A DNA stretch of 41,468 bases from Escherichia phage HK106 (NC_019768.1); one strand, 5' to 3'; shown: positions 28,291 to 32,113, counted from the first letter of the stretch. Made by a program: numbers and translations. Notes: generated by a model from the letters alone, not told the origin.

Positions 28291-28674
28291 TCACCTTGCT
28301 GTCAGTTGTTTTGATTTCCTGTAGCCTGCCGCGTAAAGAGCTACATTTGGAAGACATACACCAGTTTCTGGTTGCCTATGCCCAAACTCATTCGCGTACA
28401 CAATGGCCGCTCTCTCCAGATTGCGTCTGTATTCTTTCTGTTGCCAGATCACGTCCTGTGCCATGAACTTAATTGGCTTAGCGTCTTCTATGCGCTCAGG
28501 CGTTTCGTGAGTACCTTTAGCCTGAATCTGCGCTCTGCTTAGAGTAGGGCGGTGTAATACTTCTGAACTTATTGCTTCTTCGCGGGCCAGTACGCCGTTA
28601 GCTAATGCCTTTGCCTTTAAACGCTCACGACGACGAGAACGTGAATTGCCTTTGAACTGAGTTCTGCGTGTCAT
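28291..28674 (-). CDS. N-family antiterminator, P22 gene 24-like
   Basis: 127 aa, SD AGGAGG; N-terminal arginine-rich motif (GNSRSRRRERLKAKALA) and C-terminal …LPNVALYAAGYRKSKQLTAR resembling P22 gp24. Confidence 0.75.
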   Translation of the reverse strand: MTRRTQFKGNSRSRRRERLKAKALANGVLAREEAISSEVLHRPTLSRAQIQAKGTHETPERIEDAKPIKFMAQDVIWQQKEYRRNLERAAIVYANEFGHRQPETGVCLPNVALYAAGYRKSKQLTAR

Positions 28675-28839
28675 ATAGACCTCCTGATGAACTTTGGTGG
28701 TGTGGTAGGTGGGAGACCCATTTCGACCTGTTTCGGCCTACTTCAATTCGGCAATAGTCCCGCAGGCCTCGCCGCTTTACGTGCGACATATTCCCGTCCA
28801 TGAACCCTTCACCACACCCCAAAGTTCACTTTGGTTATT

Positions 28840-28854
28840 GCGCTTTGTCAGCGC
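28840..28854 (-). promoter_or_regulatory. nutL boxB-like hairpin (P22 type)
   Basis: minus-strand GCGCTGACAAAGCGC in the leader between PL and the N-like gene. Confidence 0.5.
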
Positions 28855-28922
28855 CGTAGATTCATCTCTGAATCGTTGTATATTCACCGCCCTGGTGAGT
28901 AGTGCGTCCTGCTGATGTGTTT

Positions 28923-28985
28923 AGTATCACCGCCAGTGGTATTTATGTCAACACCGCCAGAGATAATTTATCACCGCAGATGGTT
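28923..28985 (-). promoter_or_regulatory. OL1-OL2-OL3 operators and PL promoter (lambda type)
   Basis: TATCACCGCCAGTGGTA (28925-28941), CAACACCGCCAGAGATA (28949-28965), TATCACCGCAGATGGTT (28969-28985); minus-strand -35 TTGACA and -10 GATACT. Confidence 0.85.
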
Positions 28986-29136
28986 ATCTGTATGTTTTTT
29001 ATATAGATTTATTTTTTTGCAGGGGTGTGTGGCTTGGGAGGTGATCGAGAGATCTGAATTGCGATGTTTAGTGAGTTGTATCTATTAATTTTCAAATAAA
29101 TACAATTGGTTATGTGTTTTGGGGCGAACGTGAGGC

Positions 29137-29162
29137 AAAGAAAACCCGGCGCGGTGGCCGGG
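29137..29162 (-). terminator. tImm-like intrinsic terminator ending the cI-side operon
   Basis: minus strand CCCGGCC-accgc-GCCGGG followed by TTTTCTTTG, 7 nt after the stop of the 141-aa ORF. Confidence 0.55.
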
Positions 29163-29169
29163 TTGGAGA

Positions 29170-29595
29170 TTATTTTCTAGATGATGTTGGGGACCAAGGT
29201 AACGTTATAGTATCTAACACTGTGTTTTTGAACATATTTTCAAAAACTGTTTTTGTACATACATATACATAATTTTCAAAAAACCAAGCATTTTCATTAT
29301 AAAAATCCTCAGTTACTTCTTCATCGAGGTCACACTCAAATGTTAGTGTCAAGGTAGCCTCTGCCTTGAACAATACATCCTCACCATCATCAAAATCTTT
29401 TTTATCGCGAGGGAAACCAGTTATCGATGGCTTAACTTCAATAAAGAGCCAATTTCCATCTTCATCTTTTTGAGGAACAACGTGATGCTCAGAAAATTTT
29501 AAGCTATATTTTCCGCCTTCAGAATTATCACTGTCGTCGATAAAAAGGGAAGAACCCTCGAGATCAAATCCCTTAAAGCGAATTTTATCAAGCAT
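29170..29595 (-). CDS. hypothetical acidic protein, 141 aa, third gene of the hicAB cassette
   Basis: ATG at 29595 overlaps the hicB stop (TGATG); strongly acidic (about 29 D/E against 15 K/R); AT-rich codon usage; no family recognised. Confidence 0.6.
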   Translation of the reverse strand: MLDKIRFKGFDLEGSSLFIDDSDNSEGGKYSLKFSEHHVVPQKDEDGNWLFIEVKPSITGFPRDKKDFDDGEDVLFKAEATLTLTFECDLDEEVTEDFYNENAWFFENYVYVCTKTVFENMFKNTVLDTITLPWSPTSSRK

Positions 29596-30068
29596 CAATG
29601 TGGCACTCCGTTGTCTACTGAAACTTCCCAATAGGTCTCTTCTGTACGTCTACGGGATGAGAAGAAAGTAACTTCTCTAACATCCCTCGGTTTTTCAAAG
29701 TGGTAGTGAACCTCTTTTTTCCCATTAACTGACTCACTGACAGCCTGTTTTACATAATCGTTTAAAGTCATATTCTTAGCTTTAGCAGCTAAATATGCTT
29801 TTTTATGCAGGGATTCACCTATCCGGATGTTAAACGAACCACTCATTGTCTTATCTGGAGATTTTCCTATCTCTTCACAAGTGGAGAGGTAATCGTCCAC
29901 GGCCTCCTCAAAGGCTGCACGGAGTTCTGCAACCGTTGCACCCTCATAAGTGACGAGATCATTTATACATTCGAGTTTTCCATGCATCACCCCATCTTCA
30001 AATGAAATGCTGGAGCTACCATAGTAACCTTTGTATTTCATCAAGTTATTCATGATCATCAATCTCAT
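29595..30068 (-). CDS. hicB: HicB-family antitoxin (RNase H-like fold plus RHH DNA-binding region)
   Basis: …MKYKGYYGSSSISFEDGVMHGKLECINDLVTYEGATVAELRAAFEEAVDDYLSTCEEIGKSP…SFNIRIGESLHKKAYLAAKAKNMTLNDYVKQAV matches HicB pattern; overlaps hicA 3' end. Confidence 0.75.
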   Translation of the reverse strand: MRLMIMNNLMKYKGYYGSSSISFEDGVMHGKLECINDLVTYEGATVAELRAAFEEAVDDYLSTCEEIGKSPDKTMSGSFNIRIGESLHKKAYLAAKAKNMTLNDYVKQAVSESVNGKKEVHYHFEKPRDVREVTFFSSRRRTEETYWEVSVDNGVPH

Positions 30069-30300
30069 CTAACAGCTGTTTAACTTCTTCCAAGACGTAC
30101 CTTTTGAGGGTGTTTTCAGGATGAGGCTCATGAAAAATGACCAATCTATCAACACGTTGGTTGTAAAATTTACGGCCAGAACCTCGTTTAGCATTCAAAA
30201 GCTTGAAGCCATACTGGTTCATGAGAGTAACGAACTCATCCCAAGTAAAATTTTTGGGTAAGCCGTCTAACTTTGACTTTAGCTTTTCCTTTCTTCCCAC
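30046..30300 (-). CDS. hicA: HicA-family mRNA interferase toxin
   Basis: 84 aa, GTG start; …GSGRKFYNQRVDRLVIFHEPHPENTLKRYVLEEVKQLL fits the HicA/YcfA pattern; precedes hicB as in hicAB operons. Confidence 0.7.
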   Translation of the reverse strand: MGRKEKLKSKLDGLPKNFTWDEFVTLMNQYGFKLLNAKRGSGRKFYNQRVDRLVIFHEPHPENTLKRYVLEEVKQLLDEIDDHE

Positions 30301-30559: not shown

Positions 30560-30663
30560 GATTTTATCCCTGTCTACCCATGCTTCCTGGGCACCAGCGG
30601 CTCGTTACTCGGCATCACCCTTAATCCGCCGCCCCATGTGTTTGTTGTGATCCGTTGCTGGCC

Positions 30664-31377
30664 TTAACCAAACGTCTCTTCAGGCCACTGGCTGGCGATA
30701 ACTTTCCCCACAACGGAACAACTCTCATTGCATGGGATCATTGGGTACTGTGGGTTTAGTGGTTGTAAAAACACCTGACCACTATCCCTGATCAGTTTCT
30801 TGAAGGTAAACTCATCACCCCCAAGTCTGGCTATGCAGAAATCACCTGGCTCAACAGCCTGCTCAGGGTCAACCAGAATTAACATCCCGTCAGGAAAACT
30901 AGGTTTGGATCCTGTTGGCGCGGTCATGGAATTACCTTCAACCTCAAGCCAGAATGCAGAATCACTGGCTTTTTTGGTTGTGCTTACCCATCTCTCCGCA
31001 TCACCTTTGGTAAAGGTTCTAAGCTCAGGCGAGAACATCCCGGCCTGAACATGAGAAAAAACAGGGTACTCATACTCACTTCTAAGTGACGGCTGCATAC
31101 TAACCGCTTCATACATCTCGTAGATTTCTCTGGCGATTGAAGGGCTAAATTCTTCAACGCTAACGTTGAGAATTTTTGCAAGCAATGCGGCGTTATAAGC
31201 ATTTAATGCATTGATGCCATTAAATAAAGCACCAACGCCTGACTGTCCCATCCCCATCTTGTCTGCGACAGATTCCTGGGATAAGCCAAGTTCATTTTTC
31301 TTTTTTTCATAAATAGCTTTAAGGCGACGTGCGTCCTCAAGCTGCTCTTGTGTTAATGGTTTCTTTTTTGCGCTCAT
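30664..31377 (-). CDS. cI: CI repressor (lambda type, LexA-like autocleaving)
   Basis: 237 aa, matches lambda cI over its whole length as I recall it, including the N-terminal HTH and C-terminal S24 peptidase-like domain. Confidence 0.95.
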
Positions 31378-31387
31378 ACGTTAAATC

Positions 31388-31453
31388 TATCACCGCAAGG
31401 GATAAATATCTAACACCGTGCGTGTTGACTATTTTACCTCTAGCGGTGATAAT
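31388..31453. promoter_or_regulatory. OR3-OR2-OR1 operators with divergent PRM and PR (lambda type)
   Basis: TATCACCGCAAGGGATA (31388-31404), TAACACCGTGCGTGTTG (31411-31427), TACCTCTAGCGGTGATA (31435-31451); PR -35 TTGACT 31424-31429 and -10 GATAAT 31448-31453. Confidence 0.85.
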
Positions 31454-31477
31454 GGTTGCATGTACTAAGGAGGTTGT

Positions 31478-31678
31478 ATGGAACAACGCATAACCCTGAA
31501 AGATTATGCAATGCGCTTTGGGCAAACCAAGACAGCTAAAGATCTCGGTGTATATCAAAGCGCGATCAACAAGGCCATTCATGCAGGCCGAAATATTTTT
31601 TTAACTATAAACGCTGATGGAAGCGTTTATGCGGAAGAGGTAAAGCCCTTTCCAAGTAACAAAAAAACAACTGCATAA
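31478..31678 (+). CDS. cro: Cro repressor (lambda type)
   Basis: 66 aa [75 protein letters not shown]. Confidence 0.95.
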
Positions 31679-31685
31679 GTAACAC

Positions 31686-31731
31686 CGCTCTTTTCACAAT
31701 GGACATTCGTCCTACGTCGCTGACAAAGCGA
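31686..31731 (+). promoter_or_regulatory. nutR-like site: boxA CGCTCTTTT and boxB hairpin TCGCTGACAAAGCGA
   Basis: boxA consensus-like 9-mer 8 nt after cro stop; boxB stem-loop with the same GACAAAG loop as the leftward boxB. Confidence 0.5.
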
Positions 31732-31816
31732 GTCCCAATATATCTGACCAACTAAGGCCATATGCGTTTCCACGCATACCTTTCAACTAACTATTCACTA
31801 TTGGAAATCTTAAGAA

Positions 31817-32113
31817 ATGGAAAGAACAAGTTACAGCAAACTATCACAGCGTGACGTTGATCGCGCAGAAACAGATTTACTCATCAACCTGTCAACGCTT
31901 ACCCAGCGCGGTCTGGCAAAGATGATTGGCTGTCATGAATCGAAGATAAGCAGAACGGACTGGAGATTTATTGCTTCGGTCTTGTGTGCTTTTGGAATGG
32001 CATCAGACATCAGTCCGATTAGCAGGGCTTTTAAGTATGCGCTTGATGAAATCACAAAGAAAAAATCCCCGGCCGCCACCGAGGATTTTAAGCAAATTGA
32101 TATGCAATTCTGA
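31817..32113 (+). CDS. CII-like transcriptional activator (not lambda cII)
   Basis: 98 aa; C-terminus …KKKSPAATEDFKQIDMQF parallels lambda CII …NKKRPAATERSEQIQMEF, remainder divergent. Confidence 0.7.
   Translation: MERTSYSKLSQRDVDRAETDLLINLSTLTQRGLAKMIGCHESKISRTDWRFIASVLCAFGMASDISPISRAFKYALDEITKKKSPAATEDFKQIDMQF
31826..31839 (-). promoter_or_regulatory. candidate CII-binding site (TTGC-N6-TTGT) of a PRE-like promoter
   Basis: minus-strand TTGCTGTAACTTGT inside the first codons of the cII-like gene, the position where lambda PRE sits. Confidence 0.3.

Follow-up and report, generated by a model that had tools for sequence, protein, structure and literature searches.

A lambda-type immunity region between an H-19B/933W/HK97-type N system and an HK97-like cII allele in Escherichia phage HK106

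The 41,468-nucleotide stretch of Escherichia phage HK106 (NC_019768.1), referred to below as the window, carries at positions 28291–32113 an arrangement of N, operators, cI, cro, and cII that is very probably (about 95%) the natural immunity region of an HK97-like (Hendrixvirinae) temperate coliphage, as in mEp234 and HK106. At the level of sequence, the arrangement is confirmed as real, ordinary, and already published and annotated for mEp234 and HK106, and the same circuit is found in HK97. An earlier note on this DNA, made from the sequence alone, had described a hybrid regulatory circuit, and such a circuit is indeed present, with the cI, cro, and operators of lambda in the middle, an N gene and a nutL with a P22-type boxB on the left, and a nutR boxB of like type together with a non-lambda cII on the right. 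The word hybrid holds relative to laboratory lambda only; the arrangement and the A allele of operator OR1 that accompanies it are the majority natural configuration, and laboratory lambda is in the minority.

Interval 28200–32200 of the window was compared by megablast against a phage collection and is 100% identical over all 4001 bases to three mEp234 records (JQ182732, NC_019715, and PV340539). Two "immunity region" deposits that belong to Degnan et al. (2007; Mol Microbiol 64:232, PMID 17376085), EF120460 (mEp234) and EF120461 (HK106), are 100% identical over 3921 bases (28200–32120), and neither the mEp234 nor the HK106 immunity region differs from the window within 28291–32113. With 4 kb at 100% identity to phage records already deposited, chance is no concern. 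The annotation of EF120460, whose coordinates are converted to those of the window by adding 27918, covers N, the boxA and boxB of nutL, pL, OL1–3, Timm, hicA and hicB, cI, and pRM, and in addition OR1–3, pR, cro, the boxA and boxB of nutR, pRE, a CII binding site, and cII. The window is a cos-linear phage genome that starts at the small terminase gene, and it is collinear with mEp234 from the first base to the last, with ~99.5% identity over most of the length. For 17000–28000, which contains the stretch unlike mEp234, the phage collection yielded no record at 80% coverage or more. The arrangement is textbook lambdoid mosaicism, with precedents in HK97 (2000) and in wild lambda-immunity phages (2007), and taken alone it adds little; the 2007 study has been cited by later papers for the mosaic diversity of the cI–N interval (PMC8585504). 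The sequence identities, module boundaries, hairpins, population frequencies, and nutL/nutR co-variation given below were obtained directly.

Repressor, Cro, and operators

Direct comparisons with lambda were made against NC_001416. The elements of the switch are as follows:

28923–28951, minus strand: pL promoter, TTGACA-17-GATACT, 10/12 matches in a promoter scan, annotated in EF120460, inside the lambda-homologous block 28884–29164
28925–28941: operator OL1, 17/17 identical to lambda
28949–28965: operator OL2, 17/17 identical to lambda
28969–28985: operator OL3, 17/17 identical to lambda
30664–31377, minus strand: cI repressor, 237 amino acids, Pfam HTH_3 and Peptidase_S24
31384–31412, minus strand: pRM promoter, annotated in EF120460, inside a block 97.7% identical to lambda
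31388–31404: operator OR3, 17/17 identical to lambda
31411–31427: operator OR2, 17/17 identical to lambda
31425–31453, plus strand: pR promoter, TTGACT-17-GATAAT, 10/12 matches in a promoter scan
31435–31451: operator OR1, TACCTCTAGCGGTGATA against TACCTCTGGCGGTGATA in lambda, a single G8→A change
31478–31678, plus strand: cro, 66 amino acids, Pfam Cro, 120 bits

The match of OL1–3, OR1–3, cI, and cro to lambda, which the earlier note had stated, is borne out by alignment of the OL and OR stretches, where the operators are lambda-type, five of the six are identical, and the spacers are those of lambda (7 and 3 bp in OL, 6 and 7 bp in OR). The repressor shares 235 of 237 residues with lambda cI (99.2%; T3A and K71N) and all 237 with the cI of HK97 (NC_002167). 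Similarly, Cro shares 65 of 66 residues with lambda Cro (98.5%; K39N) and all 66 with that of HK97. The pL, pR, and pRM promoters and the Timm terminator are homologous to their lambda counterparts, and a comment on pR in NC_019715 reads "similar to lambda PR with 1bp mismatch". Lambda immunity is recognizable at the sequence level in a lambda-type repressor and Cro, including their DNA-recognition regions, and in six 17-bp operators, one of which has a mismatch.

The one-base difference in OR1, over which the earlier note had hesitated, is real, and the lambda OR1 sequence had been given correctly. To assess how frequent the change is, IMG/VR was searched for exact matches to the pR/OR1 pattern, with either A or G accepted at the variable base, which yielded 77 independent loci. 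The A allele is carried by 48 of these and the G allele by 29, and HK97 (locus L016), mEp234, and HK106 also have A, the OR1 sequence of laboratory lambda being the minority allele in nature. The A-variant OR1 sequence was not found in open-access papers.

Binding, antitermination, activation, and immunity are proposed in this text from homology and the literature. cI dimers would bind OL1–3 and OR1–3 cooperatively, repressing pL and pR and autoregulating pRM, and Cro would occupy the same operators with the order of preference reversed. With cI and Cro acting on OL and OR as in lambda, the immunity specificity would, by homology, be that of lambda. The lambda immunity group has been reported to include mEp234 (PMC3442831), and since the immunity region of the window is that of mEp234, reciprocal plating has in effect already been done.

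Antitermination

The antiterminator gene and the nut sites on either side of the switch are located as follows:

28291–28674, minus strand: N antiterminator, 127 amino acids, H-19B/933W/HK97 type, Pfam PF25694
28840–28854, minus strand: nutL boxB hairpin, GCGCUGACAAAGCGC, 15/15 identical to P22 boxB-left, annotated in EF120460
28898–28906, minus strand: putative nutL boxA, CGCACTACT, annotated as putative in EF120460
31686–31731, plus strand: nutR, consisting of boxA CGCUCUUUU (31686–31694), a spacer hairpin GGACAUUCGUCC (31701–31712), and boxB UCGCUGACAAAGCGA (31717–31731), from the sequence and EF120460

The N protein matches the N_peptide family PF25694 with 57.8 bits (cut-off 27.9) over profile positions 6–100 of 100. 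P22 gp24 fits the same family end to end (152 bits), whereas lambda N matches PF11438 and not PF25694. All 127 residues are identical to HK97 N, and identity to 933W N is 98%. In a BLASTP comparison with gp24, only the C-terminal 33 amino acids align (residues 98–127 of N, 67% identity, E 5e-11), and in a global alignment 40 of 93 columns are identical, with 8 of 21 identical in the windows of the arginine-rich motif (ARM). gp24 has 100 amino acids and can be aligned only in the ARM and the C-terminal 33 residues, and full-length orthology of N to gp24 was not found, the centre being unrelated and N being longer. N is as long as H-19B N (127 amino acids) and shares its ARM, 12-RSRRRER-18, and it retains R3, S11, R15, and R18, the residues at which H-19B N was mutated in experiments (PMC3526286). 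H-19B N has been characterized experimentally together with its nutR, which has "two hairpins" (PMC3526286).

The nutL boxB folds with a 5-bp stem and a GACAA loop (-8.5 kcal/mol, z -3.2), and the nutR boxB has a 5-bp stem and the same GACAA pentaloop, whereas the boxB loops of lambda are GAAAA and GAAGA. The motif GCTGACAAAGC occurs at only two sites in the window, the boxB elements of nutL and nutR. The boxA and boxB of nutR are separated by 22 nt that contain a hairpin of their own (GGAC-AUUC-GUCC), matching the two-hairpin nutR of H-19B; in P22, by contrast, boxA matches the consensus and lies close to boxB. The left boxA, CGCACTACT, is unlike those of lambda (CGCTCTTAA) and P22 (CGCTCTTTA). 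From the pL start to N, the leader differs little from those of 933W and HK97, and its likeness to P22 amounts to boxB plus some short blocks. The N–nut module of 933W and H-19B stands beside another immunity region, one with an HK022-like repressor. An Rfam scan of 27800–32600 at E ≤ 1 returned no family, nut/boxB and oop elements apparently not being modelled or not being detected there.

The earlier note had taken the antiterminator to be P22 gp24-like and both boxB loops to be P22-type. The second statement stands for both hairpins, while the first stands in part: it holds for the Pfam family, an ARM-like motif, the C-terminal ~33 amino acids, and boxB, but the module is of the H-19B/933W/HK97 type and not P22's own. 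By these alignments, boxB is the same as that of P22, and the N protein and the architecture of the nut spacer are of the H-19B type. In transcripts from pL and pR, the ARM of this N type would bind the boxB hairpins with their GACAA loops, and terminators downstream would be suppressed.

The cII allele and pRE

The right end of the feature contains the following elements:

31807–31839, minus strand: pRE, with -10 TAAGAT at 31807–31812 and the -35 region at 31830–31835, annotated in EF120460
31817–32113, plus strand: cII, 98 amino acids, HK97-like allele, Pfam PF05269 (Phage_CII)
31826–31839, minus strand: predicted CII site TTGCTGTAACTTGT, TTGC-N6-TTGT, annotated in EF120460 as a CII site at pRE
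32062–32089, minus strand: oop-like intrinsic terminator, antisense to the 3′ end of cII, from a terminator scan, in block 32052–32153

The cII product had been described as divergent, and it is a true member of the CII family, with a PF05269 score of 110.1 bits (cut-off 21.3) over residues 1–91, 36% identity to lambda CII, 25% to P22 C1, and 91 of 98 residues in common with HK97 cII. The candidate TTGC-N6-TTGT site that had been pointed out is likewise present, at pRE on the minus strand. All CII classes among the 77 loci, with lambda-, HK97-, and P22-type alleles among them, have a tetrad-repeat site, and its place in the 5′ end of cII does not vary. In lambda and HK97 the site reads TTGC-N6-TTGC, and in the allele of the window and in P22-like alleles it reads TTGC-N6-TTGT; the annotated C1 site of P22, TTGCGAGTGCTTGT, is also TTGC-N6-TTGT, so that the TTGT variant has a characterized precedent. 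CII would bind this site astride the -35 region of pRE, within the 5′ coding end of its own gene, and drive leftward establishment transcription of cI from there.

At the other end of the gene, the terminator would belong to an oop-like antisense unit at the cII 3′ end. A 35-bp stretch adjoining it (32121–32155) is 97% identical to the po region of P22, and 32062–32153 looks like a further short conserved boundary element.

Module boundaries

Homology to lambda DNA is restricted to three blocks. The first, 28884–29164 (89.7%), contains the pL start, OL, a conserved non-coding segment, and Timm; the second, 30668–31692 (97.7%), contains cI, OR, cro, and the first bases of the nutR boxA; and the third is a weak patch, 32052–32153 (79%), at the cII 3′ end and oop region. 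Homology to HK97 DNA extends over 28230–29160 (99%) and 30613–32324 (98.7%), and similarity to P22 DNA is confined to short patches. The mosaic very probably arose by recombination at short conserved boundaries, one just downstream of the pL start (28884) and one within the nutR boxA (31692). With boundaries at these two positions, the switch cassette would be exchangeable while nutL/N and the nutR boxB stay of one specificity type.

Between OL3 and the cassette downstream of cI lies a further element:

28986–29169, minus strand: conserved OL3-proximal non-coding segment and Timm terminator (stem 29143–29164), from a terminator scan and EF120460

The OL3–Timm segment (28986–29142) occurs in 58 of the 77 loci with lambda OR, the same number as pL/OL, at 83–100% identity, and it is kept whatever follows Timm, which is rexAB in some loci and neither rexAB nor the hic cassette in others. 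A conserved segment beside an operator region is said to have been flagged as a possible regulatory element in wild lambda-immunity phages. A plus-strand open reading frame (ORF) overlapping OL (28915–29088) and other short overlapping ORFs were rejected as genes, lying in annotated regulatory DNA or antisense to known genes.

Natural distribution

Most wild lambda-immunity isolates reportedly have a nearly invariant immunity region between differing N and CII alleles. Among the 77 IMG/VR loci, cI, OR, and cro are 95–100% identical in essentially all, and the N leader and the nutR/tR1 segments (97–99% identity) are found in the HK97-type subset only; these conservation values fit a cassette model. 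The nutR boxB is of the GACAA type in at least 46 loci and of the lambda type in 28. In the 49 loci where both boxB elements are visible, the nutL and nutR types agree without exception (33 GACAA/GACAA, 16 lambda/lambda, and 0 mixed), and the type of the N gene corresponds to that of boxB wherever the fetched locus includes N. Lambda-type boxB is found also with P22-C1-like cII alleles, which indicates that nutR goes with N and not with cII. The region is a clear illustration of how the lambda switch, made up of cI, Cro, OL, and OR, travels as a nearly invariant cassette, across which N/nutL and the nutR boxB co-vary.

The exact OR/Cro/cI haplotype of the window (OR1-A8, Cro-N39, and cI-A3/N71) is the commonest single one, occurring in 21 of the 77 loci. 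Co-adaptation of OR1-A8 with Cro-N39 or with cI T3A was considered and rejected, OR1-A being found with both Cro-K39 and Cro-N39 and OR1-G with both cI-A3 and cI-T3, and the pattern of OR1, Cro, and cI alleles looks like linkage. It is a speculative and rather unlikely proposition that laboratory lambda is atypical of its own immunity group in function, and that the natural haplotype, with an H-19B-type N and an HK97-type CII, shifts the switch parameters and the lysis–lysogeny decision. If it were true, the affinity of cI and Cro for OR1, the strength of pR, and the induction set-point would differ from those of lambda; the evidence for it consists of allele frequencies.

Several variants were noted among these loci. 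The combination of laboratory lambda (OR1-G, Cro-K39, and cI-T3/K71) occurs exactly in 11 of the 77, and in a few more with extra cI or Cro changes. Sparse variation recurs across loci L007–L083 in cI (A3T, N71K, R129K, D139G, and S157Y) and in Cro (M12I, N39K, and V55I), and cI is frameshifted in one locus. Locus L066 (IMGVR_UViG_2534681951_000011) combines a 100% identical cI and OR1-A with an N at 96% identity to P22 gp24 proper and an HK97-type cII (87%); its nutR boxB was missed by the strict hairpin rule. A true pairing of lambda immunity with P22 N is therefore also found in nature.

Weighing the alternatives

The likeness to P22 could be read to mean that the flanks are genuine P22 modules and that the region is a direct lambda × P22 recombinant with P22 gene 24 and nut sites, which would account for the nutL boxB identical to P22 boxB-left at 15 of 15 positions, the GACAA loop of nutR, an N belonging to a Pfam family modelled on gp24, and the 67% identity of its last 33 residues. 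Such an origin is extremely unlikely and, as far as alignments can decide, refuted: global identity to gp24 reaches only 40 of 93 columns, N is 27 amino acids longer with an unrelated centre, the leader is a near-perfect match to 933W and HK97 and a poor one to P22 outside boxB, the nutR boxB of P22 (CCGCCGACAACGCGG) has a different stem, cII is 25% identical to C1, and the DNA similarity to P22 amounts to short patches. Lambda-identical operators beside non-lambda flanks are also what an engineered imm hybrid would present, and a laboratory-built imm-lambda hybrid or an assembly chimera might be suspected on that ground; the same junctions, however, recur in HK97, mEp234, HK106, mEp506, and dozens of independent IMG/VR contigs, some from isolates and some from metagenomes, and from position 1 to its end the window follows the mEp234 genome collinearly, which leaves an artefact with a negligible probability. 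The OR1 change, for its part, is the sole operator base unlike lambda and falls at position 8, near the operator centre, where the N-terminal arm of the repressor contacts DNA, as might be expected of an operator-constitutive (virulence-type) mutation that weakens immunity, or it could be a sequencing error. Both are highly improbable for the majority allele of natural loci (48/77, as well as HK97, mEp234, and HK106), carried by the most frequent exact OR/Cro/cI haplotype (21 loci), at a position in the non-consensus half that varies (G, C, and T) among the six natural operators of lambda, and in a region shared with mEp234, a stable lambda-immunity lysogen (PMC3442831).

The reading preferred here, a natural immunity region of an HK97-like temperate coliphage, has three points weighing against it. 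Outside the region, the window and mEp234 are divergent or replaced over ~17–27.8 kb (17049–27820), in the tail-fibre, attP/integrase, and early-left regions; OR1 G8→A, Cro K39N, and cI T3A and K71N may alter the switch parameters; and the nutL boxA is a poor match to the consensus, so that the left boxA and its dependence on NusB–NusE may differ from lambda. Evidence contradicting this reading was not met in these sequence comparisons.

The region between Timm and cI

Three genes on one strand, which overlap or abut, replace lambda rexAB:

29170–29595, minus strand: SecB-like chaperone ORF, 141 amino acids, AlphaFold2 fold match, labelled "HicC chaperone" in PV340539
29595–30053/30068, minus strand: hicB, Pfam HicB PF05534
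30046–30300, minus strand: hicA, Pfam HicA_toxin PF07927

HK97 differs at this point, having gp48 and gp49 as its Timm–cI cassette where hicA, hicB, and the SecB-like gene stand here. The 141-amino-acid ORF had no match in Pfam, in PADLOC, or in a sequence search of the PDB, and PADLOC gave no match for the hic and SecB-like genes or the neighbouring ORFs. An AlphaFold model built with 10 homologues (predicted local distance difference test, pLDDT, 78.9; predicted template modelling score, pTM, 0.72) has as its best fold match 5mtw, the SecB-like chaperone Rv1957 of a Mycobacterium tuberculosis toxin–antitoxin–chaperone (TAC) system with its chaperone addiction (ChAD) peptide (E 1.4e-5 for the top chain; template modelling scores of 0.64–0.73 over three chains), followed by the SecB proteins of E. 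coli and H. influenzae. With the sequence libraries blank for this ORF, its SecB-like fold was revealed only by fold comparison. HicB has a tail of ~40 amino acids beyond its Arc-like/ribbon-helix-helix region (residues 73–119).

By Pfam matches and predicted structure, 29170–30300 is a HicAB–SecB-type TAC module whose expression in lysogens probably accompanies that of cI; the module is accessory and lies outside the lysis–lysogeny switch. HicAB–SecB modules are a described class of TAC systems (PMC5105189), and in a lambdoid prophage the corresponding position downstream of cI has been reported to contain a HigBAC TAC, as a TAC in a variable defence locus (bioRxiv 10.1101/2024.02.24.581848). 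A HicAB–SecB-like module in the rex slot fits the view that a hotspot for prophage-encoded defence genes lies downstream of cI. The phages mEp234, HK106, and mEp506 share the hic cassette, which was seen in none of the 77 IMG/VR loci.

Between cI and hicA, a 363-bp spacer contains a 32-codon ORF (30461–30559, minus strand) for a hydrophobic peptide, MRIGIVFPILVFIVAMGFMAWFIIDGYATPSG, with AGGGA ~8 nt upstream. The full spacer is common only to the mEp234, HK106, and mEp506 records, in all of which the ORF is unannotated.

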